From: an uncultured bacterium
GTDB lineage: Bacteria > Patescibacteriota > Minisyncoccia > UBA9983
Direction of reading: 5' to 3'
NCBI GenBank assembly: GCA_913009575.1
Contig: CAJVWH010000002.1
Location: forward strand, 1-45,614
Length of the DNA: 45,614 nt
Positions 3,838 to 40,934 of this stretch are shown piece by piece. Numbering within the stretch: position 1 is the first letter of the stretch; each line of letters starts with the position of its first letter. The notes under the pieces are model-generated. The model did not search any database, had not been told where the DNA came from, and saw only the letters and a program-made list of their open reading frames with translations. The position numbers and the translations under genes were made by a program.

Positions 3838-4743
3838 ATGCCCGAATTGCCGGAGGTGGAAACAATTGTAAATGATTTGAAAAAGGTTTTGCCTGGATTG
3901 AAAATCCGGGATGTTTGGACTGATTTCAAAAAATACATAAAATATCCGAAAAATTTCAATAAGTTCAAAAAAGAAATTATTGGCAAAAAAATCCTGAATA
4001 TTGAAAGAAAGGGCAAAAATATCTTGGTTCACTTATCAGGAAACGCGACGCTTTTGGTCCACCAAAAGATGACCGGCCATCTGCTGTACGGCAAGTGGCA
4101 GTTGGAAAATGGCGGGGCAAGCGCTCCGCCGAGCGGGGTAAGGTGGAAAAGCGCGGTTCCCGGCCCCCTGCGCGACGACCCTGAAAACCGTTTCATTCAT
4201 TTAATCTTTTTTCTTTCCAACAATAGGCAAATGGCGCTATGCGATATGAGAAAATTCGCCAAGGCGTTATTGTGGCCCACTGACAAACTGGCAGAGCTTA
4301 AGGATATTAAGGAATTGGGGCCCGACCCTTTTGGCAAAAATTTTACTTTCAAAAAATTCGCTGAGCGGCTACACGGCTCTCGCGCGATTAAACAGGTCTT
4401 GATGGATCCGAAAATAATCGCCGGTATCGGTAATATCTACGCAGATGAAATTTTGTGGCTGGCCGGAGTGCATCCGCTCAAACAAACGAATAAACTATCT
4501 AAAAACGAGATTAGAAAAATTTATCAATCAATAAGGCCTATTCTTAAGCGGGCCATTAGTGCGCGAGGCAGTTCTTATATTGACTACCGCGACGCCTTCG
4601 GCGCGATGGGGCGTTACCAAAAAATGCATTACGCCTATCAAATGACAGGGACAAAATGCCGAAAAAAAGACGGCGGCGTCATCAAAAAAATCAAAATCGG
4701 CTCCCGTAGCGCCCATTTCTGCCCTGTTCATCAAAAATTATAA
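3838..4743 (+). CDS. mutM: Formamidopyrimidine-DNA glycosylase (Fpg/MutM)
   Basis: N-terminal MPELPEVE, RKGK, H2TH motif IAGIGNIYADEILW, C-terminal GSRSAHFCPVHQ zinc-finger region. Confidence 0.97.
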   Translation: MPELPEVETIVNDLKKVLPGLKIRDVWTDFKKYIKYPKNFNKFKKEIIGKKILNIERKGKNILVHLSGNATLLVHQKMTGHLLYGKWQLENGGASAPPSGVRWKSAVPGPLRDDPENRFIHLIFFLSNNRQMALCDMRKFAKALLWPTDKLAELKDIKELGPDPFGKNFTFKKFAERLHGSRAIKQVLMDPKIIAGIGNIYADEILWLAGVHPLKQTNKLSKNEIRKIYQSIRPILKRAISARGSSYIDYRDAFGAMGRYQKMHYAYQMTGTKCRKKDGGVIKKIKIGSRSAHFCPVHQKL

Positions 4744-4759
4744 ATGATATAATCGTTTT

Positions 4760-5635
4760 ATGGATGATGCGAAAAAAGATTTGTTTTGGGTAGTAATTAT
4801 ACTTCTTGCGCTTGCGGTTGTTTGGTTTTACACCGGCGGACCGGCACGCCCTTCCGCCACCAACAGCCCTTTTCTAAAAAAACCCCTGCAAAAACACCAA
4901 ACTGAAATCCAAAAACAAAGCCAGAAAATAATTGGCAACGTTTCCAGCCATGAGAAAAAGCCATCTGAAGCATCTGAGGAATCTGCCTATAAATACAAAG
5001 TTATTTTACACGCGGGCTATGCGGCAAGAAAATCAGACCCACAAAAAGAATACGTTGAAATACGCGCCTCATCAAACAATAAAAAGCCGCTACTTGCCAC
5101 CGGCTGGACGCTGGAAGGTAAAAAAGGGCTTGATATTAAAATCGGGGAAGGCGCCTATCTGCCTTATTCCGCACGCGTCAACCCGCAACAAGCGATTTTT
5201 CTACAACCCGGAGCAAAAGCATATATTATTACGGGAGAAAGCCCTATTGGCACAAGTTTCCAATTAAACAAATGCACCGGATATTTTGCGCAATTTCAAA
5301 ATTTTACACCTTATCTTTCAAAACAATGCCCTTATCCGAAAGACGAAGATTTACCCGAAAACTTAAGTGACAAATGCCTTGATTATATTGATCGGCTGCC
5401 GAGATGCGAAATCCCGCTAAAAATTCCGTGGGGGTTGCCTTCTTCTTGTGGAAGTTATATCGCCCAAAAAATAAATTATAACAGCTGCGTTAAACTTCAT
5501 AAAAACGACCCCGATTTTTACAAACCCGAATGGCGAATTTACTTGGGGAGAGGTGATGAGTTGTGGAAAAAAGAAAGGGAAACAATAGTGCTCAAAGACC
5601 AAAACGGAAAAATCATTGACTGGTCCTCATATTAA
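4760..5635 (+). CDS. Membrane-anchored Cys-rich hypothetical protein, possibly lamin-tail-like
   Basis: N-terminal TM helix; EYVEI...TGWTL and W....ETIVLKDQNGKIID segments resemble lamin-tail domain ends; six Cys. Confidence 0.6.
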   Translation: MDDAKKDLFWVVIILLALAVVWFYTGGPARPSATNSPFLKKPLQKHQTEIQKQSQKIIGNVSSHEKKPSEASEESAYKYKVILHAGYAARKSDPQKEYVEIRASSNNKKPLLATGWTLEGKKGLDIKIGEGAYLPYSARVNPQQAIFLQPGAKAYIITGESPIGTSFQLNKCTGYFAQFQNFTPYLSKQCPYPKDEDLPENLSDKCLDYIDRLPRCEIPLKIPWGLPSSCGSYIAQKINYNSCVKLHKNDPDFYKPEWRIYLGRGDELWKKERETIVLKDQNGKIIDWSSY

Positions 5636-5651
5636 TAATATAATACTCTTA

Positions 5652-6005
5652 ATGCTAAGTATTTTCCCACAACTTTTTAATTATTCTTATTTCGCGCCTT
5701 TTATCCTGCGTGTCGCTTTAGCGTTTATTTTGCTGGCGAATGGTTATTCTCAAATGGGAGAGTCGGGAAAATTCCAAAAAGCATTTGGTATAACAAAGAT
5801 TTTGGGAGCTGTTTTTTTTGTGGCTGGATTTTTAACCCAACCTACTGCAATATTGGTCGGCGTAGCGGTCTTGGCGGAAATTTTGCGATTAAAAATAAAA
5901 AAAATCAGCATACCGACAAAAGGTTTAAAATTTTTAATTCTTGCCATTGCCGTATCACTGATACTTTTGGGTCCAGGAATCTTTGCTCTTGATTTGCCGC
6001 TTTAA
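5652..6005 (+). CDS. DoxX-like membrane protein (start revised to ATG 5652)
   Basis: ILRVALA, AGFLTQPTA, LLGPGIFALD; about 4 hydrophobic segments; TATAAT 7 nt upstream. Confidence 0.7.
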   Translation: MLSIFPQLFNYSYFAPFILRVALAFILLANGYSQMGESGKFQKAFGITKILGAVFFVAGFLTQPTAILVGVAVLAEILRLKIKKISIPTKGLKFLILAIAVSLILLGPGIFALDLPL

Positions 6006-6012
6006 TAAAACC

Positions 6013-6507
6013 ATGGAAGATAACATACAATTTTACAATGAAACACTTGGACGTCGCCTCGGATTTGAAGAATTGATTGAGGAACTTATTGGTTACGTCA
6101 ACGCCGAGCCGAATAAAGACTATAAAATAACAGTTGGAACGGATTCCCAAGGAACGAACGACACTCAATTCGTCACTGCCATTGCCATTTTAAGAACAGG
6201 AAACGGAGGGAGATATTTTTGGACAAAGTCGGAAAAAACATATTGTCCCACTCTTCAAGATAGAATTTACAAGGAAACCATGCGCTCCATAACATCTATG
6301 CAAGAATTGAAAAGCCGCTTGAAAGACAAATTGGGAGACGAATTTTTCTGGGATCATAAAGTCAGCGTGCACATTGACGTTGGGAAACACGGCTCCACTA
6401 GAGATTTGATTGACACCGTGGTGGGAATGGTGAGAGGATATGGATTTGAGGCAGTCATAAAACCGGACGCTTTCAGCGCGTTTTGTTTGGCCGACCGCCA
6501 CACATAA
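6013..6507 (+). CDS. RNase H-like YkuK/DUF458 family protein
   Basis: ITVGTDSQ, G.GGRYF, L.DRIY.ET, VHIDVG..G.TRDLI, IKPDAFSA...ADRHT. Confidence 0.85.
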   Translation: MEDNIQFYNETLGRRLGFEELIEELIGYVNAEPNKDYKITVGTDSQGTNDTQFVTAIAILRTGNGGRYFWTKSEKTYCPTLQDRIYKETMRSITSMQELKSRLKDKLGDEFFWDHKVSVHIDVGKHGSTRDLIDTVVGMVRGYGFEAVIKPDAFSAFCLADRHT

Positions 6508-6517
6508 ATTTTAATAT

Positions 6518-6590
6518 CCGCCCATAGCTCAGTTGGTAGAGCAGCGGCCTTTTAAGCCGAGTGTCCCAGGTTCGAGTCCTGGTGGGCGGA
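6518..6590 (+). tRNA. tRNA-Lys(TTT)
   Basis: Acceptor CCGCCCA/TGGGCGG, D-arm GCTCAGTTGGTAGAGC, anticodon loop CT-TTT-AA, T-arm CCAGG-TTCGAGT-CCTGG; no CCA. Confidence 0.95.
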
Positions 6591-6613
6591 CACGAACGAA
6601 GTGAATGAAGGAA

Positions 6614-7510
6614 CTAAAAATTTATCAAAAACTTTTCAAGGCCGATTTCAAACTCGGCTCTTCCCTTTCTAATATCGTGGTATAGATTGACTAATTGCGA
6701 CGAGTAACCGTTCAGTTCTTTGCCCGTAAAATTTTTCAAGGCGGTTAAAGTCTTTTTAACAACAAAGGGATGTAAACCGCTTTCTTTCCGTAAGTTTTTC
6801 ACATTGGATTCAGACAATTTTTTAATCAAAAGCAAATTTTTTACCTGCCACCAGATTTTCCAAAAAACATCTTCCGCCGCCACGCCCCGCAAAAGTGCCT
6901 GCTGAAAAAGCACCCATGTTTTGTTTTTGTTTTTGGCAACAAAAGCATCACATATATGAAAAGGGTTATAATCATTCTTGGTTCCCCAAAATTCAATTTT
7001 TCCGCCCAAGACATATTTTTCAATTTCTCTTGAGGCACACCACAAGTCAAAACCGCAAATGTTTATGATATTTTCCTGTTCTTCTTGCGACACACTTTTC
7101 ACTCCTGATTTCCGTATTTCCTCCATAATCCATTTTCTCATTTCATGCCCCGAAAGCACGTTAAAAGACTGTATTTTTTCCGCTTTTTCTTCAAATAATT
7201 TTAAGTCCTCACTATTAATTTCTTTTTCCCAAAAAATAAAAACATTGTGTGAAAGAAAAAACTTGGTGATGTTTTCAGAAACAAATTTTGAAGAATTTTT
7301 ATTCTCCATCATTGCCTCGCAAACCACCAAATGTTTTTTCCTAAATAATATTTGCGACTGCAGCAACTCTTCAAGTTCAAACGAATTAAAATCCTCCCCG
7401 CTAATTCTAAAAACCCCCATTCTGTCTGTTTTAGAAGAAAAAAAATCAAGGAGGGTTTTTAACTTCCTTTTACTTCTAAACGTATCTTTGCCATAAAGTA
7501 AATAAAACAT
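6614..7510 (-). CDS. holA: DNA polymerase III delta subunit
   Basis: MFYLLYGKD.F, DLW...EIEK, F.ICDA, GLHPFVVKK, L..LY..I..G....EIGLE pattern. Confidence 0.8.
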   Translation of the reverse strand: MFYLLYGKDTFRSKRKLKTLLDFFSSKTDRMGVFRISGEDFNSFELEELLQSQILFRKKHLVVCEAMMENKNSSKFVSENITKFFLSHNVFIFWEKEINSEDLKLFEEKAEKIQSFNVLSGHEMRKWIMEEIRKSGVKSVSQEEQENIINICGFDLWCASREIEKYVLGGKIEFWGTKNDYNPFHICDAFVAKNKNKTWVLFQQALLRGVAAEDVFWKIWWQVKNLLLIKKLSESNVKNLRKESGLHPFVVKKTLTALKNFTGKELNGYSSQLVNLYHDIRKGRAEFEIGLEKFLINF

Positions 7511-7517
7511 CCCAATT

Positions 7518-7901
7518 TTATAAATAATGATTTTTAAGGGTCTTTTTCACTTTTTCTACGATTTCTCCGGGAGTGAAATTAACCTTAATCATAAAATCAA
7601 CAACTCCCAAAAATTTAGCCTTGGCAATATCTTCCTCTTGCCCCAAATTGCTCAAAATTATCACCGGTATAGCACTTGTTTTTTTATCCTTCTTTATCAT
7701 TGAAAGAATTTCAAAACCGTCCAAACCCGGTAAAATTAGGTCTAAAATTATCAATGACGGTTTTTTTTCTTCTAAAAGCTTGAACGCCTCTCCGCTACCG
7801 GAAGCCGCCCAAACTTCATAGCCCTCTTTCTCCAGTTTCTTGGAAACAAGGTCTCTGAAAAATTTATCGTCTTCAATTACTAAAATACCTTGCATTGCCA
7901 T
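7518..7901 (-). CDS. Stand-alone response regulator receiver domain
   Basis: ILVIEDD, LIILDLILPGLDG (phospho-Asp), PVIILSN, conserved K in FMIK. Confidence 0.92.
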   Translation of the reverse strand: MAMQGILVIEDDKFFRDLVSKKLEKEGYEVWAASGSGEAFKLLEEKKPSLIILDLILPGLDGFEILSMIKKDKKTSAIPVIILSNLGQEEDIAKAKFLGVVDFMIKVNFTPGEIVEKVKKTLKNHYL

Positions 7902-7924
7902 ATAATTATAATGTTAATTGTTAA

Positions 7925-10162
7925 TTATTTATATAATATCATATCTTCCCAGTTTTTACCTACTGCGACATTAACTTTGATAGGTACGTCGTTTTTATAA
8001 ACTTCCTCCATTTCCCTGATTATGAGGGGGATGCATTGGCCTATAATTTTTTCATCTATCTCAAAAAGTAATTCGTCGTGAATTTGAAGCAGTAATCGCG
8101 CTTTACTTTTCAATTTTTTGTCTCCAAGCGCTTTATCCGCCCTCACCATTGCCAATTTTATAAAATCAGCGGCAGTACCCTGAATTGGCGCATTTACCGC
8201 CATCCGCTCCGTCTCCTTTCTCACATATTCAATCGGGGAATTAATCTCCGGAAAAAATCTTTTTCTGCCGAACAGAGTTTCGGTATAGCCGTTTTTGCGG
8301 GCAAACTCTTTTATATGTTCAACATATTCAGCCATTCCGTTAAAATTTTTGAAATATTCTTTATAAAAAATCATGGCCTCTTCCCGCGAACATCCAAGAT
8401 TCGCCTTCAGTGCGTTAATTCCCATCCCATAAATAATTCCAAAATTAATGACCTTGGCCCTTCTGCGCATCTCGGCGGTAATTTTATCCGGCGTCACATT
8501 AAAAACTTTTGAAGCCACTGCGCTGTGAATATCCTCCCCTTTCTTAAAAATTTCCGACATTTTGGAGTCCTTGCTGAGAATCGCCGCCACTCTCAGCTCA
8601 ATCTGCGAATAATCAAAGGCGGCTAACTTGAAACCTTTGCCGGCAATGAAAGCGCGGCGAATATTCCTTCCTAATTCGGTTCTCTTGGGAATATTTTGAA
8701 GATTGGGGTCTTTTGAAGAAATTCTGCCCGTGGCCGTGCCGGCCTGGTCAAAAGTCGTATGAAGCCTGTTGTTTTCATCAACCAATTTCGGCAGAGCATC
8801 AATGTAAGTTGAAACCAGTTTCGCGAATTCACGATAAGAAATAATTTCGTTTATAATCGGATGCTCGTTTTTTAATTTTATCAATTCGGAAATATTGGTT
8901 GAATAAGAACCGTTTTTTGTTTTTTTTTGCCTTTTCACCCTTAACCCAAGCTTATCAAAAAGAATTTCACCTACTTGTTTCGGAGAATTAATATTAAATT
9001 CTTCTCCGGCCATAACCCATATTTTTTTCTCAAGTTTTTTAAGTTTAGAATGGTACTCTTCTGACAATTTTTTTAAATGTTCAATATCCAGCAAAATACC
9101 TCTTTCCTGCATCCCGGAAAGTACTCTTGAAAGCGGAATTTCAATTTCCCTAAATAATTTTTCCGGAACCGCGCCCTGAAATCTTTCATGAAGAAGCTCT
9201 TCTTCGCTTCCAAGGACAGTCCTTGGAAGCATCCAAGGACTGTCCTTGGAAGCATCGCCCAATCTTTCAATCAAGCTCCTGAAACCTAATTCGTTAAAAA
9301 GGATTTTTACTTTTTCAATATCAAATTGTTTTTTCCATTCAGTTTCTTCAAGAGAAAATTTTATGCGCGCGTCACGTCTGATTTCCGCCAATGTCTTGGA
9401 AAACAGTGATTCTTCTTCGTTCTCCTCCAAAAGTTTTATTATTCGCGGTTTAACGCCGGCTTTTTCCAGCGCCGATTTATTTTTTTTAATGGTTTTGTAT
9501 AAATTTTCAATGGTGTTGAATTTTTGTATCAACAAACTTGCTGTCTTGTCCCCTATGCCGGGTACGCCGGGAATATTATCTGAGGGGTCTCCCTTCAGCC
9601 CTTTAAAATCCGGCAAGAGTTTCGGTTCAAAACCATATCTCTTTTTTACCTTGTCTTCATTATAGATAACTGTGTCCTTTATACCCTTACTTAGAGTGTA
9701 AACAACAATATCATCATCTTTTACGAGTTGAAGGGTATCTAAATCTCCAGAAGCAATAATAGTTTTTAGTTTGTAGTTTTTAGTTTGTAGTTTCTCAACG
9801 ATTGTACCCAGCATGTCGTCCGCCTCAAACCCGGGCAAACTGTAAATCGGAATTTTAAAAACATCAAGAATGTCCCGCGAACGGTTAATTTGTTTTGCTA
9901 AAGCATCTTCCATTTTTGGCCGCTGGGCTTTGTATTTCTCGTAAGCGATGTGACGAAAGGTCGGTTCCGGCAAATCATAACAGGCAGCGATATAATCCGG
10001 CTCAAGTTCGCGGATTACCTTTAAGAGAAAGGCGGTAAAACCGTACAGAGCGCCAGTCGGTTCGCCCTTCGGGGATGTGAAATCCGGCAGGGCGTGATAG
10101 GCGCGATGCAAAATCGCGTGCGCATCCAAAAGTACCAATTTTTTTTTCTCACATTTTCCCAT
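7925..10162 (-). CDS. polA: DNA polymerase I (5'-3' exonuclease plus polymerase, no 3'-5' exonuclease domain)
   Basis: LLDAHAILHRAYHA, GDPSDNIPGVPGIG, TGRISSKDPNLQNIP, DYSQIELR, KVINFGIIYG, LQIHDELLFE. Confidence 0.97.
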   Translation of the reverse strand: MGKCEKKKLVLLDAHAILHRAYHALPDFTSPKGEPTGALYGFTAFLLKVIRELEPDYIAACYDLPEPTFRHIAYEKYKAQRPKMEDALAKQINRSRDILDVFKIPIYSLPGFEADDMLGTIVEKLQTKNYKLKTIIASGDLDTLQLVKDDDIVVYTLSKGIKDTVIYNEDKVKKRYGFEPKLLPDFKGLKGDPSDNIPGVPGIGDKTASLLIQKFNTIENLYKTIKKNKSALEKAGVKPRIIKLLEENEEESLFSKTLAEIRRDARIKFSLEETEWKKQFDIEKVKILFNELGFRSLIERLGDASKDSPWMLPRTVLGSEEELLHERFQGAVPEKLFREIEIPLSRVLSGMQERGILLDIEHLKKLSEEYHSKLKKLEKKIWVMAGEEFNINSPKQVGEILFDKLGLRVKRQKKTKNGSYSTNISELIKLKNEHPIINEIISYREFAKLVSTYIDALPKLVDENNRLHTTFDQAGTATGRISSKDPNLQNIPKRTELGRNIRRAFIAGKGFKLAAFDYSQIELRVAAILSKDSKMSEIFKKGEDIHSAVASKVFNVTPDKITAEMRRRAKVINFGIIYGMGINALKANLGCSREEAMIFYKEYFKNFNGMAEYVEHIKEFARKNGYTETLFGRKRFFPEINSPIEYVRKETERMAVNAPIQGTAADFIKLAMVRADKALGDKKLKSKARLLLQIHDELLFEIDEKIIGQCIPLIIREMEEVYKNDVPIKVNVAVGKNWEDMILYK
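9206..9254. repeat. Tandem 23-bp palindromic repeat inside polA
   Basis: GCTTCCAAGGAC-A-GTCCTTGGAAGC (9206-9230) and TCCAAGGAC-T-GTCCTTGGA (9232-9250). Confidence 0.9.
9760..9794. repeat. Heptamer array (TAGTTTN)x5 inside polA
   Basis: TAGTTTT TAGTTTG TAGTTTT TAGTTTG TAGTTTC; encodes KLQTKNYKLKT. Confidence 0.85.
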
Positions 10163-10216
10163 TCTTTAATTATAACATTCTCTCGCCTCAGGCATAATGA
10201 AATAAAAAAACCTGAT

Positions 10217-10246
10217 TTGACAATGATTTTTATTTATATATACTAT
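10217..10246 (+). promoter_or_regulatory. sigma70 promoter of nusA
   Basis: TTGACA at 10217-10222; TATACT at 10239-10244 (16-nt spacer) or TACTAT at 10241-10246 (18-nt spacer). Confidence 0.7.
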
Positions 10247-10263
10247 GAATATAGATAGATGAT

Positions 10264-10291
10264 AGTCCGTTTTTTGAAACGGACTTTTATT
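10264..10291 (+). terminator. Terminator-like hairpin in the nusA 5' leader
   Basis: AGTCCGTTT-4 nt-AAACGGACT followed by TTTATT, between promoter and start codon. Confidence 0.6.
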
Positions 10292-10309
10292 AAATAAAAA
10301 AAGAAAAAT

Positions 10310-11527
10310 ATGGATTTAAAATCACTAAAATCAGCGCTTGAACAAATGGAAAACGATAAGGGAGTTGCAAAAGAAAAAATCATTGAGGCGATTGAAATGG
10401 CCTTGGCGGCCGCCTATAAAAAAGATTTTGGGAAAAAAGGGCAGATTATTCGGGCCAAGTTTAATATTGAAACAGGAGAAACCGAATTTTCCCAAATTAA
10501 AATCGTTGTTGACGAATCAATACTGAAGCCGGAGGAAGAAGGAGAGGAATTAAAATCCGAGCAGCAGAAAGAACAAAAGAGCGAAAATGAGGATAAAAAC
10601 GAGGGAGAAGAAGGAGAGGAGCAGAAAGTCCGTTTCAGTCCTGAACATCACATAATGATAGAAGAAGCGAAAAAAATCAAAAAAGATATTCTTCCCGGGG
10701 AAGAAATCGTTTTCCCTTTGGAGTCCAAAAAAGACTACGGCAGAATTGCCGCCCAAACTGCCAAACAAGTTATTATTCAAAAAATCAGAGAGGCGGAAAG
10801 AGTTTCCATATTTAAAGAATTCAAAGACAGGGAAGAGGAAATAATAACGGGAATTGTACAACGCGTTGACAATGGCAATGTTTTTATTGATCTTGGACGC
10901 ATTACCGCAATTTTGCCAAGAGACGAACAAATTAGGGGCGAAAGATATCGCATTGGCGAAAGAGTTAAATCATTGCTTTTTCTTGTTGAAGAAACACGAA
11001 AAGGAATAAATTTATATCTTTCCCGCTCCCATCCTAAATTTATCGCCAAACTTTTTGAACTGGAAGTTCCTGAAATAGCCAATGGAATTGTGAAAATTAA
11101 GAATATCGCGAGAGAATCGGGTTCAAGAACAAAAATTTCCGTTGATTCCAATGAAGATGGTGTTGACCCGGTCGGCTCCTGTGTTGGACAAAAAGGGACT
11201 AGAATCAATATTATTATTTCAGAATTAGGGGGAGAAAAGATTGATATAATAGAATGGTCTGAAGACACGGAAAAATTTATCGCAAACGCGCTCTCACCCG
11301 CGAAAGTCATTGATGTTGAAATCAATGAAAAAAACAGGGAAGCGAAAGTTATGGTTGATGAAGACCAGCTTTCTTTAGCAATTGGCAAAAGCGGGCAAAA
11401 CGTGCGTTTGGCGGCCAAACTTACTGGTTGGAAAATAGACATACGCTCACGCGAAGGCAAATCAGTGGCAAAAGCAACGGAAGAAGGGGATATGATGGAA
11501 AAAGAAACCTCCAATGGAGACGCCTAG
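10310..11527 (+). CDS. nusA: Transcription termination/antitermination factor NusA
   Basis: YGRIAAQTAKQVIIQKIREAER, S1 domain, ARE.GSRTK, DPVGSCVG.KG.RI, SLAIGKSGQNVRLAAKLTGWKIDI. Confidence 0.98.
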   Translation: MDLKSLKSALEQMENDKGVAKEKIIEAIEMALAAAYKKDFGKKGQIIRAKFNIETGETEFSQIKIVVDESILKPEEEGEELKSEQQKEQKSENEDKNEGEEGEEQKVRFSPEHHIMIEEAKKIKKDILPGEEIVFPLESKKDYGRIAAQTAKQVIIQKIREAERVSIFKEFKDREEEIITGIVQRVDNGNVFIDLGRITAILPRDEQIRGERYRIGERVKSLLFLVEETRKGINLYLSRSHPKFIAKLFELEVPEIANGIVKIKNIARESGSRTKISVDSNEDGVDPVGSCVGQKGTRINIIISELGGEKIDIIEWSEDTEKFIANALSPAKVIDVEINEKNREAKVMVDEDQLSLAIGKSGQNVRLAAKLTGWKIDIRSREGKSVAKATEEGDMMEKETSNGDA

Positions 11528-11535
11528 GGGAAAAA

Positions 11536-12774
11536 TTATCTGATTCTCAAGCTCCATAAAGTATTGTCCTTTTTATTCATAAAAACAAGATAATGTCCGC
11601 CATCAACCCAGAAAGGATTTGTAACGTCAGTGCCCGTGTTTTTCAAAATCATTTTTGTTTCACCCGTTGAAATGTTTATGCTCCAAATTGAATCATTGAA
11701 AGAAATTAAACCTTGATACCAAGTGTCAGGATATTTTGACGAGGGAAGTTTGTTTGGTACTCCGCAATAAATCACATCGGGGCGCGATTCACCCCACACG
11801 CATTTTTCAGGAATGGTTTTTAATCCAATATCTCTTGAACTTTTTTTATTTACGTCAAATACTTTCGTATTAAATATTCCGCCAACACTTTGACTGTAAA
11901 TCACATTTTCTCCGCTTGGCGACACCAAAGCGGTAAGTCCCTTAATTTTACCCAATATTTTCTCCATTTTTGCCGTTTTGGGGTTTAAAAAATATAGGAA
12001 ACCATCTGCCAAGCCAGATGGTTTCGTAAGCAAAGAAATAATATTCTTATTTGGCCAATTCACGTTAAATCCTCCGAAAGGCATTGAAAATACTACTTTT
12101 TGTTTTTCATTATCAAAATTGGCAATTATTCCCGTGGTTTCCGCGCCGGAATTATTTAAATAAAAAACTTTGTCTTCCGCCGGAGAAACAGCTACAGCAG
12201 TTGTGTTTTTGGGCAGAAAAACACCCGCCAAAGAAGAAAAAGGCGTGGTCGTTCCGCCGGATGATTCACCGCCTTCCCCGCCATCCTTCTTAATTGAAAC
12301 GGAAAAAGTTTTTGCCAAGGAGATAATGTTATCGTCATCAAGGTAGCGAATCACAACCTTATCCGCGCCGGGAGACCAGAAAGATTCAAAAATTTTAAGA
12401 ATGGTGGTGTTGGTAATACGCGTTCTGTCTTTGCCGTGTGGGCCAACTTCATAAATATTTCCCGTTGATTTCTCAATATAGCGGATAGTAGTACTCGCGG
12501 ACTGTTCTCCGTTTCCGGAAAAAACGGCGGCCCCCGCAACAGCTTGCGGGACTATTTGAATAAAATCAGCAGTCTTGGCATTTTCACCCGGTAAAAGTTT
12601 TCCGCCTGGCAGCAAGCCGTTTATATTCCTTTCTCCACTTGAAGGAAAAGAACCGCCACCTGTATCCGAACCGTTTCCTCCAGACTTTTGGGAGGAAAAC
12701 CAAAAAACTCCGCCCGCTGCCGCCAGAAGCAAAATCAAAACTGTTGATAAAATTATAATTGTTTTTTTATTCAT
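11536..12774 (-). CDS. Membrane-anchored beta-propeller-like protein (start revised to ATG 12774)
   Basis: N-terminal TM helix, Gly-rich linker, repeated W/SP.G..V blade-like motifs; last gene of the T4SS-like cluster. Confidence 0.6.
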   Translation of the reverse strand: MNKKTIIILSTVLILLLAAAGGVFWFSSQKSGGNGSDTGGGSFPSSGERNINGLLPGGKLLPGENAKTADFIQIVPQAVAGAAVFSGNGEQSASTTIRYIEKSTGNIYEVGPHGKDRTRITNTTILKIFESFWSPGADKVVIRYLDDDNIISLAKTFSVSIKKDGGEGGESSGGTTTPFSSLAGVFLPKNTTAVAVSPAEDKVFYLNNSGAETTGIIANFDNEKQKVVFSMPFGGFNVNWPNKNIISLLTKPSGLADGFLYFLNPKTAKMEKILGKIKGLTALVSPSGENVIYSQSVGGIFNTKVFDVNKKSSRDIGLKTIPEKCVWGESRPDVIYCGVPNKLPSSKYPDTWYQGLISFNDSIWSINISTGETKMILKNTGTDVTNPFWVDGGHYLVFMNKKDNTLWSLRIR

Positions 12775-12782
12775 ATTATTTA

Positions 12783-13418
12783 TCAAGAACCTCCAGTTCC
12801 TCCACCATTTTTCTTGCAATTGGCAGTTTCATCTAGGCAGCAATCTTCTCTTGTCTTGTATTGGCTGCCAGATGTACTGCAATAGCCCGTATCCACACTT
12901 CTCTGAATACATTCACGGTCTCCATTTTGCACCACCCAACAATTTACTGAACTATTTCCATTTCCACTATCATTTCCACTATTTTCATTTTCAATGTTAA
13001 TTCCCGGTATTGTAAGCCCTTTTTTCACCAAATCGGGATTAATAGTACTGAGAATAAGCACAGACGATATCGCCAGCAATAATCCCCAAAGTGCCATTTC
13101 AATCATTTCTTTGCCTTTTTTCCGCGCGGTTTCGCTGGCACCCCCAACAACAATATTCATTGCTCCGATAATAATCTTCAGAACAGCAAGAAAAGCGGCC
13201 GCTGCCAAGGCAAAATGAAAAATCCAACTTAAATACTGCGATAAATTTGGACTGTCTCCGCCTTGAATGCCCGGCAATGGCTGTAAAAGGCTGTAGGCGG
13301 AAACAAATGAAAAACTAAGGGCAAAGAAAATGAAACAGAAAAACAGAATAGAAAAAATTTTGAATTTCATGCCGCTATTTTTATTTTCACGTTCTATAAT
13401 TCGCATTTTATTGTCCAA
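12783..13418 (-). CDS. Pilin-like (VirB2/TrbC-type) protein with Cys-rich C-terminal extension
   Basis: Signal peptide, two hydrophobic helices, motif K.GKEMI..AL.GLLLA..S.LIL.TINPDL. Confidence 0.7.
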   Translation of the reverse strand: MDNKMRIIERENKNSGMKFKIFSILFFCFIFFALSFSFVSAYSLLQPLPGIQGGDSPNLSQYLSWIFHFALAAAAFLAVLKIIIGAMNIVVGGASETARKKGKEMIEMALWGLLLAISSVLILSTINPDLVKKGLTIPGINIENENSGNDSGNGNSSVNCWVVQNGDRECIQRSVDTGYCSTSGSQYKTREDCCLDETANCKKNGGGTGGS

Positions 13419-14388
13419 AATTTACCATAAAATTATTATTGGCGAATTGGAATTCCCTAAAAAGATTTTTGGCATTGAGGGTGATGGTTGACTGCCCGGA
13501 TTCCCTGTTTTTGTTCACACGTAAATTGACCACGTTTGGTTTTTCAGTTTTGATTTTTTTTCCGTTTATTGCCCAATTAAAAGAAAACTCTTTTCCTTTT
13601 TTCGGGAAGGAAAAGAAGAACGGTTCGGCTCTGACTGAAACTTCATCTCCTTTTAATTGGAACATTTTTCCGATTGCCGTGTTATAAGACGGACCCTCCA
13701 GCGGATAATCTTCGTAAAAGATTAATTTCGGTTCCAAATTTTTAATTTTCACTGAATTCTCGGCAGTAATTTTTTTATTGTAATTTGAAACTTTCACGCC
13801 GACCGTGCTTTCATTGAAAGGCCCTGCCGTTCTGAATGTGAAAGAATTTTTCCCGGTCCCGGAATAATCCGGCTGATTTTTATGGCTCAACTTCCAATAA
13901 TAAACAAAATTTGACGGGTTGGTAATGGAATATTTTCCAAAACGCGGAATGGCCGTGACGGTTATCAAAGAACCGGGGACGGGCATTGCCTTGCCTTTGT
14001 AGGGAGCGGGGGTGTAAGTTTTCACCTCCCACAGCAAATCAACTTCTGCCGGAATAACCTTCAAAGTTTTGTTCAATTTTAATCCTTTTTCCGTTTTTAA
14101 AGAAACAAAAATATCCGTTTCTTTGCCGGCATCCCCTGTCTTAAAATTAAACGCTTTTTCTCCCCTGCCGGATAATTTTACCGTTCCGTTAACGGACCAT
14201 GTGATATACGACCTATCCACATCAATGCTGTAACTTTTCATGCTGACGTTAACCGGCATATTCGGACCCGGAAATTTCGGTGACACTTCTGCAAAAAAAT
14301 CCTCGCCAATCGCCAGCGCCCTGCCGAAAAAAGCCGTTGCCGACACAATCGCGACCAGAAATAAAATTTTTATGATTTTTTTTCTCAT
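13408..14388 (-). CDS. Secreted beta-rich (Ig-like) hypothetical protein
   Basis: Signal peptide; three repeats of a W..NG/W-centred beta-sandwich-like segment. Confidence 0.6.
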   Translation of the reverse strand: MRKKIIKILFLVAIVSATAFFGRALAIGEDFFAEVSPKFPGPNMPVNVSMKSYSIDVDRSYITWSVNGTVKLSGRGEKAFNFKTGDAGKETDIFVSLKTEKGLKLNKTLKVIPAEVDLLWEVKTYTPAPYKGKAMPVPGSLITVTAIPRFGKYSITNPSNFVYYWKLSHKNQPDYSGTGKNSFTFRTAGPFNESTVGVKVSNYNKKITAENSVKIKNLEPKLIFYEDYPLEGPSYNTAIGKMFQLKGDEVSVRAEPFFFSFPKKGKEFSFNWAINGKKIKTEKPNVVNLRVNKNRESGQSTITLNAKNLFREFQFANNNFMVNFGQ

Positions 14389-14741
14389 ATTGCTTTCGCT
14401 TCCAAACCTGCCATTGCTTTAGGCAAAATTTCTTTGGTTTTATTTTTAATCATTATAACAATAATCACGCCTGTCCAAAAGGGCAAGGCGGCGATGACAG
14501 GAATAATCTCAGCAATTCCTCCTATAGCAAGCCACCCTCTAAAATTCTTTACTCCTTTTATTTTCAACCAAAGATAAAAAGTAAGCCACGCCCAAATACT
14601 TATAAGTCTGTTTACAATCAACCCGATTAGAACTACGTCAAGAAAAAACTGGACTCCGTCAAAAAGCAAAGCGACGCCTATCATTAATCCCCATTCAATA
14701 TTTGAAATTTTACTTTTCTCATTACTCATTGCTTTGCTCAA
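14385..14741 (-). CDS. Small integral membrane protein of the T4SS-like cluster
   Basis: Three hydrophobic segments, EIIP...LPFWT; overlaps the virB4-like stop. Confidence 0.65.
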   Translation of the reverse strand: MSKAMSNEKSKISNIEWGLMIGVALLFDGVQFFLDVVLIGLIVNRLISIWAWLTFYLWLKIKGVKNFRGWLAIGGIAEIIPVIAALPFWTGVIIVIMIKNKTKEILPKAMAGLEAKAI

Positions 14742-16551: not shown

Positions 16552-16557
16552 GTTATA

Positions 16558-17235: not shown

Positions 17236-17241
17236 ATTATT

Positions 17242-17646
17242 CTATTTTACTTCTTCTTTTATATTTAAACTCCATGCCAAATCTTTTAATTTGCTTTTAG
17301 TTAATTTTGGGGCATAAATTTGCGCAGGAGATGTAATTTGCCTTTTTTTTATCAAATTGTCTTTCTTCTCTTTTTTCTTCCATATATAAATTTTAGCATC
17401 TGACGCATAATGCAAGGCATTCTCAACCATTTTTATGAACGGTCGGTTGTTGGGTTTGTAAAAAGCAAGAGCCAAAGCAAGTGCTCCGACGGGAATGGTA
17501 AACAAAAACATCAAGAAAAAAGGCAGTATCACATACAGCAGAAAAATTATTCCCGCCCCTCCCGCCAAATAAATAAACTGTTTGAGCGTTAGAGGCCCGA
17601 ATATCTTGCTTTCTACTTCAATAAATTGTGGAACTTGAAATCTCAT
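17242..17646 (-). CDS. PrgI-family (VirB3-like) membrane protein
   Basis: FQVPQFIEVESKIFGPLTLKQF, two TM helices, N.RPF. Confidence 0.85.
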   Translation of the reverse strand: MRFQVPQFIEVESKIFGPLTLKQFIYLAGGAGIIFLLYVILPFFLMFLFTIPVGALALALAFYKPNNRPFIKMVENALHYASDAKIYIWKKKEKKDNLIKKRQITSPAQIYAPKLTKSKLKDLAWSLNIKEEVK

Positions 17647-18257: not shown

Positions 18258-18279
18258 AATTTTTATAACGACAAATTGT

Positions 18280-18675: not shown

Positions 18676-18684
18676 AATACTATT

Positions 18685-24071: not shown

Positions 24072-24827
24072 ACACTTCCATTGTTCTACATTCAACTCTT
24101 CCGCTCTTGCTTTTTCTCCAATCCCGCACTTTGTTAGGCATTGAGTGTCTGATATTTGTAAATTATTTTTTATCAGTTTGCGCTTGCTTGAAAAACCTTT
24201 TTTGACGGCCGTAAAAAATTTTTCTTCATTAATTTTTTTCGCGCCGCAAAGGGAGAAGAAATCTTTTGAAATATTGTCAATCAGTAAAATAGCGGAATCA
24301 ACTTTCGGTTTTGGCGAAAAATATTTTGCCGGAACCCTCTTGATAATCCGAGGGCTGCCATATGCTTTGACACTGATTGAAAGAATACTTTCTTTGCCGT
24401 TTCGCGCCACAATCCTTTCGGCCACTTCTTTCTGAACCATCAAAACCATCCTACTCGGCCGGCAGTCACTTTCTAAAAACTTACGCAAAAGGTGCGAAGT
24501 AATGTAATAAGGGATATTTGCGATAATTTTATAACTTTTAGTTTTTAGTTCGCAGTTTCTAGGATTAAATTTTAAAATATCCGCGCGGACAACTTCCAAT
24601 TTTTCCCGGTCAGCGAATTTTTTCTGCAAAAACTCCGTCAAATGTTCATCTTTTTCAACCGCAATCACACGCCCCGCCTTTTCCAACAGCGCCTTGGTCA
24701 AAATTCCCTTTCCGGGACCCACCTCCAAAATGACATCATCAGACTCAACAGCCCCGGCTTGGATAATTTCATTGACTATTGCTTTTGATGTTAAAAAATT
24801 TTGCCCCAATGATTTTTTTGCTCTCAT
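24048..24827 (-). CDS. rsmA: 16S rRNA m6,6A dimethyltransferase RsmA/KsgA
   Basis: KKSLGQNFL, LEVGPGKGILT, IANIPYYIT, MVQKEVAERI, F.PKPKVDSA. Confidence 0.97.
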   Translation of the reverse strand: MRAKKSLGQNFLTSKAIVNEIIQAGAVESDDVILEVGPGKGILTKALLEKAGRVIAVEKDEHLTEFLQKKFADREKLEVVRADILKFNPRNCELKTKSYKIIANIPYYITSHLLRKFLESDCRPSRMVLMVQKEVAERIVARNGKESILSISVKAYGSPRIIKRVPAKYFSPKPKVDSAILLIDNISKDFFSLCGAKKINEEKFFTAVKKGFSSKRKLIKNNLQISDTQCLTKCGIGEKARAEELNVEQWKCLVEGASF

Positions 24828-26576: not shown

Positions 26577-27038
26577 TTATTCTACCACTTTTTGTTTTTC
26601 AATAAAACTTCGCAGGATGATGGCAGCTGCCGATGCGTCAATTTTTTTCATTTTCCCCTGCCATCCTTTTCTTTTTTTATTTGACAAAGAATAGCGCTCT
26701 TTGCCGATAACCGGCACCTCTTTCGCTTCATAAGTAGTCAATGTCTCCTCTTCATATTCCACAGCCAGACCGGTTTCTTTTTCCAAAAGTGTCTTGAAAG
26801 GTTCTATTTTTTTCATAACGGGATTAGGATAACCATGATAGTCAACTGACTTTCCAAGAATTATTTTTCCAACCTCATTCTCCTCACAAATTTTCTTAAT
26901 TTGTGCAAGGCTGAGCCTTGCACATTTTTGAGTGGGACAATTTTGAATCACGGAATGCGGAAAGGCAAACTTACCCCTTTCATCCGAAAGGGCAACTCCA
27001 ATCCTTTTTATCCCGTAATCAATGCCAAGCAGTCTCAT
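26577..27038 (-). CDS. ruvX: RuvX/YqgF family nuclease (pre-16S rRNA processing)
   Basis: LGIDYG.KRIGVALSD, EETLTT.EA, IDASAAAIIL. Confidence 0.93.
   Translation of the reverse strand: MRLLGIDYGIKRIGVALSDERGKFAFPHSVIQNCPTQKCARLSLAQIKKICEENEVGKIILGKSVDYHGYPNPVMKKIEPFKTLLEKETGLAVEYEEETLTTYEAKEVPVIGKERYSLSNKKRKGWQGKMKKIDASAAAIILRSFIEKQKVVE
26902..26924. repeat. Perfect palindrome inside ruvX
   Basis: TGTGCAAGGCT-G-AGCCTTGCACA, 11-bp arms. Confidence 0.9.
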
Positions 27039-35939: not shown

Positions 35940-36008
35940 TAATGGACATAACGGACAAATTTTCTAACGGACATCCCAACGAACAATGTCCGTTAGGGTG
36001 TCCGTTAT
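35940..36008. repeat. Array of TAACGGACA 9-mers: four direct, two inverted
   Basis: Direct copies at 35940, 35949, 35965, 35977 (first and last degenerate); TGTCCGTTA at 35987 and 35999. Confidence 0.85.
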
Positions 36009-36262: not shown

Positions 36263-37729
36263 ATGCCATACAAAATTCCTCAAATTGTTCTCAAAACAAC
36301 AAAATCCCTTATTGACGCCAGTTTTGACGCCTATTTGGTTGGCGGATGCGTTCGCGACTTATTGTTACACAAGAAACCAAAAGATTGGGATATCACCACT
36401 AACGCCAATCCGGAACAAATTCAAAAACTTTTTTCAAAAACCGTTTATGAAAACAAATTTGGTACGGTTGCTGTAATAAATGAATCGGTTTCTGATGAAA
36501 CACTAAAAGTTATTGAAATAACACCTTATCGTCTTGAATCTAAATATTCTGACAAAAGACACCCTGATGAAGTGCGTTTCACAAGTAACCTAAAAGATGA
36601 CCTAAAAAGAAGAGATTTTACCATCAATGCTATTGCCTTAAATCCGGTTTCCGGTGAAATTATTGATCTTTTTAGTGGCCAAAAAGACCTTGAAAAGCAA
36701 ATGATTAAGGCGGTAGGAAACCCTGAAGAACGCTTTAATGAAGATGCTTTGCGGGTTTTAAGGGCAATTCGCCTGGCAACGGAACTTGATTTCATTGTTT
36801 CCGGTGAAACAATGAAAGCTATTAAAAAATATTGCAATTTACTAAAAACAATCGCAAAAGAGCGAATAAGAGACGAATTTATAAAAATTTTGATGTCTAA
36901 AAAACCAAGCAAGGGCATAGAAATGATGCGTGAGTTGGAAATTTTAAAGTATATTGCTCCGGAACTGGAAGAGGGCATTGAAATAAAGCAAAATAAAGCC
37001 CATAAATTCACGGTCTGGGAACATAACCTTAGAAGTTTGGACCATGCTGCAATGAAAAATTGGCCTTTTGAAATCCGTATGGCGGCTCTTTTACATGATG
37101 TCGGCAAACCGGCTACCAGGCGTTGGAGCAAGGAAAAAAACGATTGGACATTTTATGGACATGATGTAGTGGGCGCCAAAATGACGGCAAAAATTCTTTC
37201 TCGCCTAAAATTTTCCAAAAAAATGATTAACTTAATAACCAAACTTGTTCGTTGGCATTTATTTTTTTCGGAAACAGAAACAATCACCTTGTCGGCAGTG
37301 CGTAGAACCGTCCGAAATGTGGGACCGGAAAATGTTTGGGATTTGATGAAAGTGAGATTTTGCGACCGAATAGGCATGGGCAGACCGAAAGAAACTCCTT
37401 ACCGACTTCGTAAATATGAATCAATGATTGACGAGGCGATGCGAGCGCCTTTGTCTGTAAAAATGCTTAAAATCAACGGGAAAAAAGTGATGGAAATAAC
37501 AAACGAAAAAACTGGTCCTAAAATAGGTCATATTTTACACGTTCTTTTGGAAGAAACCCTTGATAACCCTGAGTTAAACAACGCTGAATATCTCAAAAAA
37601 AGGGTAAAAGAATTGGCCAAATTACCTGAAAAACAATTGGAAGACATGGGTAAAAAGGGAAAACTTACCAGAGAAAAAAAAGAGGGAAGAGAAATAGAGA
37701 GTATACGTAAAAAATGGTATGTGAAATAA
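36263..37729 (+). CDS. cca: CCA tRNA nucleotidyltransferase with HD domain
   Basis: VGGCVRD, DWDITT, DLKRRDFTINA, RFNEDALRVLR, ERIRDE, LLHDVGKP, FYGHD. Confidence 0.93.
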   Translation: MPYKIPQIVLKTTKSLIDASFDAYLVGGCVRDLLLHKKPKDWDITTNANPEQIQKLFSKTVYENKFGTVAVINESVSDETLKVIEITPYRLESKYSDKRHPDEVRFTSNLKDDLKRRDFTINAIALNPVSGEIIDLFSGQKDLEKQMIKAVGNPEERFNEDALRVLRAIRLATELDFIVSGETMKAIKKYCNLLKTIAKERIRDEFIKILMSKKPSKGIEMMRELEILKYIAPELEEGIEIKQNKAHKFTVWEHNLRSLDHAAMKNWPFEIRMAALLHDVGKPATRRWSKEKNDWTFYGHDVVGAKMTAKILSRLKFSKKMINLITKLVRWHLFFSETETITLSAVRRTVRNVGPENVWDLMKVRFCDRIGMGRPKETPYRLRKYESMIDEAMRAPLSVKMLKINGKKVMEITNEKTGPKIGHILHVLLEETLDNPELNNAEYLKKRVKELAKLPEKQLEDMGKKGKLTREKKEGREIESIRKKWYVK

Positions 37730-37732
37730 CTA

Positions 37733-37780
37733 AAAAACTAAAACAGCCGCGCATTTAAACGCGCGGCTGTTTTAGTTTTT
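37733..37780. terminator. Bidirectional intrinsic terminator between convergent genes
   Basis: Perfect 20-bp inverted repeat AAAAACTAAAACAGCCGCGC / GCGCGGCTGTTTTAGTTTTT with 8-nt loop. Confidence 0.88.
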
Positions 37781-37806
37781 ACCTCATCTCACGGTTTTAT
37801 ATCTTC

Positions 37807-39876: not shown

Positions 39877-40034
39877 ATCAGTATTGTTAAATTAACCGAT
39901 AATAATCGACCTTCCTTGTTGTTCAATAGTTAACGAGCAGTAATCTCATATTTTATTTTAAAAGACCAAAATTAATAGATGTTTAAAGAGCAAAAAAATG
40001 AACTAATACTAATTATATACAATACATTTAATTT

Positions 40035-40934
40035 TTAATTTGTCAACCTGCGCCTTGAATGAAATGCCTTATGGACATCGCGAAGCTGTTTGTCCGTTAT
40101 GTGGGTATAAATTTGCGTGGTAGTAATATTGGAATGGCCGAGGAGAGATTGGACCGAGCGCAAATCAGCCCCGGCGGACAATAAGTCAGTGGCAAAACAG
40201 TGACGAATCACATGGGGTGTAACTTTTTTGGAAATTCCGGCTTTAATAGCATAATATTTTACGATTCTTTCCACGGAACGCGGAGTAAGACGAGAAGTGT
40301 CGGAAACTCGGTTTCCGACATGGATAAATAGGGGTTCATTTGTGTCAGTTCTTTTTTCCAAATAGTTTTTTAATGATTTCTTCGCGCTCTCGGACAAAAA
40401 AACAACTCTTATTTTATCTCCTTTGCCGCGTACCGAAAATTCTCCCGTTTTCGCTTCAACAATACGATCTCTATTCAAAGAGCATAATTCCGAAACTCTC
40501 AATCCGGTTGAAAACAAAAGCTCCAATATGGCCTTGTCGCGTAATGATTTCAATCCATTGCCTTGGGGAGCATTAAGCAATCTTCCCAACTCCTCTTCCG
40601 TTATCAAATCCAATTCACGTTGGGGAACTTTGGCAAGTTCTATTCTTTCCGGAGCCAAGGATTTAATTCCACGCCTTGCCAGATATTTCAAAAACACACG
40701 GAGAGCGATTAAATAATAATTTTGCGTTTTTCTCTTTAATTCTTGCCTATTAAGCCTTAATCTAAACTTGCGCACCGTTTCATCAGTGATTTCCTCCGGT
40801 CCCTTTATTTTTGAGAACTCCAGAAACTTGCTTAGATATCTGCCGTAATTTTCCACTGTTTTTACGCTCCTTCCTTTTTCTATTTCCAAATATTCCAAAA
40901 ATTCTTTTCTTAAATTCTTAATGTCGCACAACAT
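40035..40934 (-). CDS. xerC: XerC/XerD-family tyrosine recombinase (start revised to ATG 40934)
   Basis: FL.YL.IE.GRS.KT..NY, RD.AILELLFSTGLRVSEL, GKGDK.R, TPH.IRH.FAT, VQ.LLGHSNI.TTQIYT. Confidence 0.88.
   Translation of the reverse strand: MLCDIKNLRKEFLEYLEIEKGRSVKTVENYGRYLSKFLEFSKIKGPEEITDETVRKFRLRLNRQELKRKTQNYYLIALRVFLKYLARRGIKSLAPERIELAKVPQRELDLITEEELGRLLNAPQGNGLKSLRDKAILELLFSTGLRVSELCSLNRDRIVEAKTGEFSVRGKGDKIRVVFLSESAKKSLKNYLEKRTDTNEPLFIHVGNRVSDTSRLTPRSVERIVKYYAIKAGISKKVTPHVIRHCFATDLLSAGADLRSVQSLLGHSNITTTQIYTHITDKQLRDVHKAFHSRRRLTN
40298..40320. repeat. Perfect palindrome inside xerC
   Basis: TGTCGGAAAC-TCG-GTTTCCGACA, 10-bp arms. Confidence 0.88.

Follow-up and report, generated by a model that had tools for sequence, protein, structure and literature searches.

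Palindromes within genes of the window

Contig CAJVWH010000002.1, analyzed here over its entire length of 45,614 nt (the window), is one of 39 contigs in the 651,712-nt assembly of an uncultured bacterium. The homologs of its encoded proteins carry the source names Patescibacteria, Parcubacteria or Paceibacterota. Short palindromes lie in frame within several of its housekeeping genes, and we argue below that they probably belong to a system of repetitive extragenic palindromic (REP) elements and REP-associated tyrosine transposases (RAYTs) whose copies are largely intragenic. The assembly, designated G000, has a G+C content of ∼41% and is 94.6% complete. Its coding fraction is ∼92%, with crude open reading frame (ORF) calls accounting for 91.5% of the DNA. 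Where labels are needed, C numbers denote contigs of G000, the window being C2, and the remaining G numbers denote the genomes of relatives.

A preliminary description of the window listed seven palindromes in genes assigned as polA, ruvX, xerC, rsmA, mutM and galT. Pfam matches agree with these assignments, the last three being rsmA/ksgA, mutM and a galT-like gene, and xerC encoding an XerC/D-type recombinase. Four of the listed palindromes, two in polA and one each in ruvX and xerC, are members of families dispersed in the genome (Table 1). Three other palindromes, in pnp, in an ORF of 427 codons and in cca, were missing from that list.

The sites in mutM and galT have no second copy in the genome, and their arms are of chance-level length. 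Hairpins in the window with arms of at least 5 bp number 625, versus 627 in simulated sequence, and those with arms of at least 6 bp number 210 versus 180. Both sites are therefore rejected as elements. The rsmA site does not qualify as a Watson-Crick palindrome, since only six of its ten pairs are canonical and the remaining four are G.T on the plus strand. It differs by four substitutions from the family to which it might belong, and because ∼0.5 equally weak matches are expected by chance genome-wide, its membership is left undecided. The description had also sorted the sites into two shared types, and this grouping proved wrong. The polA and ruvX palindromes represent families C and D, which have only CAAGG/CCTTG in common, and the xerC palindrome (family A) and the rsmA site are likewise not of one family.

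The two polA units are 23 nt apart and jointly form an inverted repeat with 22-bp arms, which Tandem Repeats Finder reports as 2.1 copies of period 23. The 745-residue PolA protein has Pfam matches to 5′-3′ exonuclease and polymerase domains, and the doublet is placed in the linker that joins them. Its units are translated in unlike frames, as ..SKDSPWM.. and ..LPRTVLGS... There is no Pfam match in this protein for a 3′-5′ exonuclease domain, and the short linker occupied by the doublet stands where that domain would be. A perfect palindrome also lies within a 427-residue ORF that matches no Pfam family. No second copy of this palindrome was found at up to four substitutions, and it is assigned to no family.

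Table 1. Palindromes and other repeats of the window, and related repeats elsewhere in the assembly. Positions refer to the window unless a contig is named.
Feature	Position	Gene or context	Sequence	Description
pnp palindrome, family E	1006..1032	pnp (polynucleotide phosphorylase), 3-1496, minus strand	ATGTTTGGAGGTT-G-AACCTCCAAACAT	in frame; 13-bp arms; encodes CLEVQPPNM
mutM site	4111-4130	mutM		5-bp arms
polA doublet, family C, inverted	9206..9253	polA, 7925-10162, minus strand	TTCCAAGGAC-A-GTCCTTGGAA + ATCCAAGGAC-T-GTCCTTGGAA	in frame
polA tandem tract	9760-9793	polA		
Singleton palindrome	11998..12025	427-aa ORF, 11536-12819, minus strand	GAAACCATCTG-ccaagc-CAGATGGTTTC	perfect
rsmA site	24132..24154	rsmA, 24048-24827, minus strand	family TGTTAGACAC-tcg-GTGTCTAACA	possible decayed copy of this family
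galT site	26382-26402	galT-like gene		6-bp arms
ruvX palindrome, family D	26902..26924	ruvX, 26577-27038, minus strand	TGTGCAAGGCT-G-AGCCTTGCACA	in frame; 11-bp arms, 1-nt centre; encodes KCARLSLAQ
Inverted repeat	35965-36007	among four tRNA genes		imperfect, 21 nt
cca palindrome, singleton	36790..36817	cca (CCA-adding enzyme)		perfect; 12-bp arms
Hairpin	37733-37780	between convergent cca and 689-aa genes		perfect; 20-bp arms; terminator-like
xerC palindrome, family A T.G-wobble variant	40298..40320	xerC/xerD-like recombinase gene, 40035-40973, minus strand	TGTCGGAAAC-TCG-GTTTCCGACA	in frame; 10-bp arms, 3-nt loop (11 bp counting the T.G pair); encodes VGNRVSD
Other tandem tracts	C3:4041-4073, C3:4249-4279, C16:9347-9378, C32:2901-2934			
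Spaced hairpin families	C10:4305-4339, 6489-6523, 8748-8782; also C11, C24 and C26	spacers	CTCCCGCCCCCGAAGTC; AACGCCCGAAGAAA	17-bp arms; 14-bp arms with 4-nt loop

Palindrome families and their RAYT-like genes

Perfect hairpins occur in G000 far more often than chance predicts. Genome-wide, 90 have arms of at least 12 bp and loops of at most 8 nt, compared with 0.8 in a null of 10 second-order Markov simulations. The excess extends to coding sequence, as the preliminary description had proposed to check with codon-shuffled controls. Among 484 ORFs of at least 150 codons (529 kb), 48 hairpins with arms of at least 11 bp are present, versus 3.4 after synonymous-codon shuffling and 1.9 after shuffling of codon order. 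For arms of at least 12 bp, the corresponding values are 33 versus 1.5 and 0.4.

The further copies that the same description had suggested looking for exist, and they fall into families of 2-14 members located in unrelated genes and spacers. Units measure 21-27 nt, and many copies are inverted doublets (spacing 18-25 nt) that extend over no more than 48 nt. Family A (TGTCGGAAACC-N-GGTTTCCGACA) has 7 copies at up to three mismatches, family B (ACTTGGAGACT-W-AGTCTCCAAGT) has 14 copies, and family D (TGTGCAAGGCT-S-AGCCTTGCACA) has 6. Families C (TTCCAAGG-N5-CCTTGGAA) and E (GTTTGGAGGTT-N-AACCTCCAAAC) are represented in the window by polA and pnp, and smaller families exist as well. In most families complementarity reaches a single central base. 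Beyond the shared core, palindromic extension varies by copy (CCAC../..GTGG, CAAC../..GTTG or TCGAC../..GTCGA).

Multi-copy families account for 82 hairpins, of which 37 lie in ORFs of at least 150 codons and 12 in ORFs of 60-149 codons, the other 33 being located in spacers or at the edges of genes. The repeats are thus not confined to extragenic DNA, although by our own arithmetic family members are about sevenfold denser per kb in spacers than in genes. The copies show no shared placement with respect to the starts or ends of genes. Host genes recognized through Pfam encode PNPase, PolA, RuvX, XerC/D, MiaA, TopA, a Kae1/HypF-like protein, LepA, LigA, a T2SSE ATPase, triosephosphate isomerase (TIM), MetRS, LeuRS, MnmA, GAPDH, DnaG, a flavoprotein, a D-Ala-D-Ala carboxypeptidase, GatB, a glycosyltransferase, PheT and a Fic protein. 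The presence of TIM, GAPDH, the carboxypeptidase and the glycosyltransferase bears out the earlier caution that a bias toward genes acting on DNA or RNA might merely reflect local gene content.

The copies are translated in different frames and orientations, as had been described, with individual families read in up to three frames. Family B yields HLETKSPS or LGDLVSK, and family C yields QGLPL, PRT.LG or SK.SPW. Because one family gives unrelated peptides in different frames, the shared feature must be DNA or RNA rather than peptide. In family B, all 10 copies located in ORFs of at least 150 codons carry, at the central A/T position, the base that avoids TAA or TAG in the frame used. Selection acting on insertions that are translated would leave such a pattern.

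Several other features of G000 were recorded during this survey. Two additional hairpin families recur in spacers at intervals of ∼2.2-2.5 kb (Table 1), and these look like terminators of repeated gene units rather than in-frame elements. In PheT (C19:6318-8702), residues 354-429, which lie between the B3/4 and B5 domains, match NlpC/P60 in Pfam. A reading of the palindromes as DNA uptake sequences was rejected in view of the many genome-specific families with few copies each, and an artefact of assembly or amplification was rejected in view of the same families in several independent genomes.

The preliminary description had named RAYT or IS200-type HUH genes flanked by the palindromes as a target for searching. 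Three Y1_Tnp matches above the Pfam cut-off are present in G000, in ORFs of 210, 225 and 264 codons, and two of these genes are bracketed by palindromes. The three proteins are mutually 34-38% identical, so the gene has not been multiplied as near-identical copies. The His-x-His motif and Tyr (H79, H81 and Y139) are invariant in a 63-sequence alignment. A structure model of one paralog built from this alignment has a predicted local distance difference test score (pLDDT) of 91.9 and replaces an unusable one from 11 sequences (pLDDT 43). The best Foldseek match of the model in the PDB is 4er8_A, E. coli TnpA-REP in complex with a REP hairpin (E 3.2e-6), and the TnpA proteins of IS608 and ISDra2 follow at ∼1e-3. 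The modelled paralog therefore lies nearer to TnpA-REP than to IS200 TnpA. A phmmer search of PDB sequences with one RAYT-like protein gave two matches at chance level (E 0.3). The RAYT-like proteins have a conserved QG.[PT]L at one position. The protein of the type encoded on C21 has 2,380 homologs at E ≤1e-10, whose source names are solely “transposase”. The contig-end ORF on C7 (locus L002 2300-3103) ends in ...SEEHTSELQSH, a peptide that we regard as a common artefact, of assembly or contamination, in this position.

Around the gene on C9, family B lies 17 nt upstream and, as a doublet, 13 nt downstream, and two in-frame copies lie within the gene. Family C is found upstream of the gene on C21, within it and in its last codons. 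The same arrangement is widespread among homologous Parcubacteria loci. We assembled 80 loci from GTDB and 20 from relatives, and removed 8 without an ORF and 4 at contig ends. Of the resulting 88, 53 repeat one palindrome at least twice within the ORF and 100 nt on either side, compared with 1 of 158 shifted control windows. Repeats are placed upstream and downstream at 32 of the 53 loci, upstream, internally and downstream at 14, and in other patterns at 7. Copies both upstream and downstream are thus found at 46 of the 88 loci, and a gene flanked by its dispersed family is found for two of the three genes in G000. Across lineages the palindrome sequence changes, and the layout around the gene is constant. 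Of 21 internal copies, 14 have their centre 50-80 nt 5′ of the HUH codons. The internal copy of the modelled paralog encodes residues 52-59, which in the structure model lie between helix 1 and the following strand. In the portions of the REP/RAYT literature available to us, we found no description of a cognate repeat inside the enzyme's ORF.

Orthologous sites and distribution among relatives

The relatives, with genomes of 0.4-1.2 Mb, are at most 79% identical to G000 in protein, and exact insertion boundaries are not definable for this reason. Ortholog alignments nonetheless bear out the earlier placement in loops or linkers for polA, ruvX, xerC and pnp. The linker that holds the polA doublet is variable in length among 8 orthologs, as are the ruvX and xerC loops among 13 orthologs each. 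The family A copy in TIM represents a clean gain of 7 residues (21 nt) relative to all five relatives compared, and alignment with a solved TIM structure shows 5 extra residues directly after the CPPF motif. The pnp palindrome adds 5 residues relative to two of four relatives (G009 and G008). The copy in GAPDH corresponds to 3-4 additional residues versus two of five relatives and to 7 versus a third, and the protein is of equal length or shorter versus the other two.

At several of these sites, relatives have palindromes of other sequence. The pnp site holds other palindromes in G006 and G007, and another palindrome is present in xerC of G012. At the ruvX site, G003 has the perfect palindrome TGTGCAACATT-S-AATGTTGCACA, which forms a 9-copy family in that genome and in G022. 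In gatB and leuS, G000 carries family B doublets (23+2+23 nt). G009 carries, in the same position and geometry, doublets of ACTTGGACAC-tcg-GTGTCCAAGT, a palindrome that also brackets and invades the orthologous RAYT gene of G009, and G002 carries doublets of a third variant. Where checked, site variants match a multi-copy family of their own genome or that of its cognate RAYT. Either the loop palindromes have been rewritten in step with the enzyme, or tolerant loops have been re-invaded. The comparison of orthologs suggested in the preliminary description revealed indels or other palindromes at the sites. None of the refuting outcomes named in that description, which also included a lack of further copies and a frequency at codon-shuffled expectation, was obtained.

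Tandem repeats form a separate class of loop sequence. Tracts of 4-5 units of 7 nt (or 14 nt), such as TAGTTTG, AATTTCT and AAATTAG, occur within ORFs and spacers of G000 (Table 1), and the tract in polA is placed in a length-variable loop of the 5′-3′ exonuclease domain. In relatives, loops of TIM, XerC, GatB and LeuRS are filled by (ATCTCAA)n or (ATCAGCT)n, so that “ISNLKSQISNL” peptides recur, and these are the loops that hold palindromes in other genomes.

We scanned 40 relatives for the families, 17 from the same taxonomic family as G000 and 23 from other families. Family B is present in 7 of the 17 (20 copies in G024 and 13 in G022), family A in 3 and family D in 2, and none of the three occurs in the other 23. 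The C-type pattern is found in 5 of the 17 and 2 of the 23. Copies in relatives occupy other places than in G000, and the xerC 23-mer variant also recurs elsewhere in G007, G011 and G022. Variants differ through compensatory double changes or through G.T wobbles on one strand. Of 29 copies sampled in G024 and G022, 24 fall within frames of at least 150 codons that are free of stops, with all three frames represented.

Y1_Tnp genes are plentiful in these organisms. Four of five relatives searched, with genomes of 0.5-0.9 Mb, have 5-15 matches, and the maximum is reached in G022 (∼0.5 Mb, 84% complete). Each of the RAYT genes examined in relatives has its own palindrome. These palindromes include kin of families A, D, E and H of G000, together with the TGTTAGAC type. 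Public sequencing runs were consulted as five DNA contig sets from two studies, with no RNA set listed. Four of these sets, compared with window positions 1-20000, include contigs that cover 1006-1032 and 11998-12025 without indels, and no contig among those listed bridged 9206-9253. The best sets may be the source of the assembly itself, and the comparison is uninformative on mobility.

Interpretation and relation to known systems

These observations probably reflect a REP/RAYT-type system with largely intragenic copies. Its palindromes would be REP-like, short hairpin-forming repeats such as those on which RAYTs, a group of single-strand-DNA HUH enzymes, operate. The earlier suggestion of a mobile or protein-binding micro-element system that colonizes ORFs is in keeping with this. 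We observed directly the excess of hairpins, the families and their frames, the avoidance of stops and the indel-tolerant loops. Equally direct are the RAYT fold, the bracketing by REPs, the patchy distribution and the genome-specific variants at orthologous sites.

In the mechanism that we propose, each RAYT-like paralog would have its own cognate palindrome family, which would bracket the gene and often contribute one in-frame copy inside it. Copies, single or as inverted doublets, would owe their spread or maintenance to action of the enzyme on single-stranded hairpins. Family and fold suggest single-stranded DNA as the substrate, and they suggest that the RAYT-like proteins would bind, cut and copy the hairpins. 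Selection would leave the copies in spacers together with those that keep the frame, are free of stops and lie in surface loops or linkers. Selection of this sort, and not targeting, presumably underlies the in-frame pattern. Surviving intragenic copies would be translated into 7-16 residues, either additional or in place of others. With hardly any non-coding DNA in the genome, the palindromes would come to sit in tolerant loops of many essential genes.

Several observations weigh against this proposal. The third RAYT-like gene, on C7, has no flanking palindrome, and for families A, D, E, F, G and H the G000 assembly contains no cognate RAYT. No Y1_Tnp match was found in G024 (92% complete), despite its 20 copies of family B. 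The loops in polA, ruvX and xerC are variable, but the orthologs provide no clean empty site. Flanks of family A-H copies share no common tetranucleotide and carry neither a GTAG nor a CGTC tag, GTAG being present solely in the 5-nt loop of family C. Apart from the variable palindromic extension, nothing in the flanks is conserved that would indicate a target-site motif or duplication. The three enzymes score 25, 36 and 40 bits against the NCBIfam REP_Tyr_transpos equivalog NF047646, below its cut-off of 80, and in a sequence-profile search they match solved TnpA proteins weakly (E 0.007 to 0.1). Symmetry up to a single central base is not needed by a hairpin, and it fits a duplex-symmetric site or an origin by fold-back copying equally well or better. 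Finally, the cca palindrome shows no length difference from five orthologs. Its right arm corresponds to ancestral coding sequence and the difference is confined to the left arm, so insertion is ruled out there and the palindrome may have arisen in place or by chance. For this reason, not all palindromes here are insertions.

A more tentative extension of the proposal assigns the REPs a longer residence. On this account they are long-term occupants of loops, and the copies in gatB, leuS, ruvX and pnp have repeatedly been rewritten to the current specificity of the RAYT, either by enzyme-driven concerted evolution or by site-specific re-invasion. The REP within the enzyme gene could then serve as a self-recognition site that senses or limits the RAYT's own gene. 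We regard this as possible, though doubtful.

The palindromes might instead be functional sites selected by the host, such as binding sites for a dimeric protein, pause sites of replication or transcription, or mRNA hairpins, with the HUH proteins as domesticated partners that do not move them. The genome-specific variants at the same loops across genera and the conserved position of the in-frame copy within the enzyme gene agree with a host function. So does the divergence of the paralogs, which are unlike duplicates of an insertion sequence, and the part of bioRxiv 10.1101/2021.07.10.451892 consulted describes RAYTs as single-copy, vertically inherited and co-evolving with REPINs. Sites under host selection would not be expected to come as many families per genome with few copies each, to be present or absent between genera of one taxonomic family with copies at differing places, or to lack a common position relative to gene starts or ends. 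In addition, the G.T pairs of the xerC and rsmA sites lie on the strand opposite the mRNA, which argues against an mRNA hairpin there. We consider host-selected sites very unlikely.

Formation in situ is very unlikely as a general account. Template switching or fold-back copying would perfect imperfect inverted repeats, and unrelated genes would converge by chance or mutational bias. Such a process would readily produce complementarity up to a single central base, palindromic extensions that differ between copies, and the cca palindrome with its single altered arm. It does not account for identical 21-25-nt units in unrelated genes and spacers, for their bracketing of Y1 HUH genes in homologous loci over controls, or for the clean 21-nt gain in TIM, and template switching leaves unexplained why one variant is common to gatB, leuS and the RAYT gene of a single genome. 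Hardly credible is a selected peptide module useful in protein loops, with incidental DNA symmetry: family A is translated as VGN[RP]VSD in four of five intragenic copies and the RAYT-like proteins share QG.[PT]L, yet families B and C each encode unrelated peptides in two or three frames, units also occur in spacers, and arm changes are compensatory at the DNA level.

The preferred reading, a REP/RAYT-type system, finds its closest parallels in the REP/REPIN-RAYT systems of Proteobacteria such as E. coli, Pseudomonas and Stenotrophomonas (background in the accessible parts of PMC5581495 and bioRxiv 10.1101/2021.07.10.451892). Both have short palindrome families in the form of singles and inverted doublets, one cognate family for each divergent, non-duplicated and repeat-bracketed Y1 HUH gene, and repeats that co-vary with the enzyme between lineages, and the best fold match, 4er8, comes from such a system. 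In Pseudomonas and Neisseria, a RAYT paralog's loss is reported to be accompanied by decay of its repeat family. The differences are considerable. REPINs are almost exclusively extragenic according to the available text of bioRxiv 10.1101/2021.07.10.451892, unlike the 37 of 82 family members found here in ORFs of at least 150 codons. The units described here are shorter, mostly perfect to a 1-nt centre, and have no GTAG or CGTC tetranucleotide at the palindrome end. Up to 15 paralogs are present in a 0.5-Mb genome, the enzyme gene contains an in-frame cognate copy at a fixed position, and the NCBIfam equivalog cut-off is not reached.

Intragenic REPs are not without precedent. As far as the consulted part of Di Nocera et al. 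2013 (PMC3733652) goes, most REPs are intergenic, as the preliminary description had also stated, but in-frame intragenic REPs were already published there. That account, which deals with REPs tagged by GTAG or CGTC from Proteobacteria and a small number of other phyla, describes copies wholly within ORFs, often as dimers, in numbers that vary by species, and encoded as extra residues. Genes for DNA polymerase, ligase and tRNA synthetase are among those that carry them. The palindromes reported here resemble these REPs in lying wholly inside ORFs, often as dimers and as extra residues, and differ in being untagged, in the proportion located in ORFs of at least 150 codons and in their Parcubacteria lineage.

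Rickettsia palindromic elements, in the excerpts of PMC10969869 and PMC2996958 at hand, are in-frame palindromic selfish DNA inserted at fold-compatible positions of unrelated housekeeping genes, with a length of ∼150 bp given in the former. In-frame insertion into unrelated housekeeping genes is a shared trait. In contrast, the units here are 21-27 nt, with doublets of up to 48 nt, instead of 100-150 bp, and are tied to RAYT-like genes. In-frame palindromes of Wolbachia and Methanocaldococcus jannaschii are also described in the excerpt of PMC2996958, and we saw no link to these in sequence or enzyme in what was available. With IS200/IS605 elements (IS608 and ISDra2), the system has in common the Y1 HUH fold, the His-x-His motif and Tyr, and sub-terminal hairpins that flank the gene. 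It departs from them in the lack of near-identical gene copies (34-38% identity), in the length of the proteins (210-264 residues versus 125-152 for solved TnpA chains) and in repeats that spread without the gene.

No literature tying RAYT, REPIN or IS200-type palindromes to Patescibacteria or Parcubacteria was found in the collection searched. Because prior art, to the extent accessible, covers several parts (intragenic REPs, Rickettsia elements, the palindromes of Wolbachia and M. jannaschii, and RAYT-REPIN co-evolution), the finding is a variation on REP/RAYT and not a new kind of system.

Ultra-small genomes of bacteria from Candidate Phyla Radiation (CPR) lineages are usually pictured as streamlined, with little mobile DNA. 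The 0.65-Mb genome studied here carries dozens of REP-like elements that persist inside essential proteins. These elements serve as a natural guide to the loops of core enzymes that tolerate insertion, and they make repeat-enzyme co-evolution readable at orthologous protein sites. They also give a warning for CPR annotation and phylogenomics, in that shared loop peptides such as LGDLVSK and VGNRVSD are footprints of mobile DNA and not homology. The cognate repeat within the ORF of the enzyme raises a testable question on RAYT self-regulation. If the loop palindromes are indeed rewritten, a transposase-like enzyme would continuously edit the sequences of dozens of housekeeping proteins.

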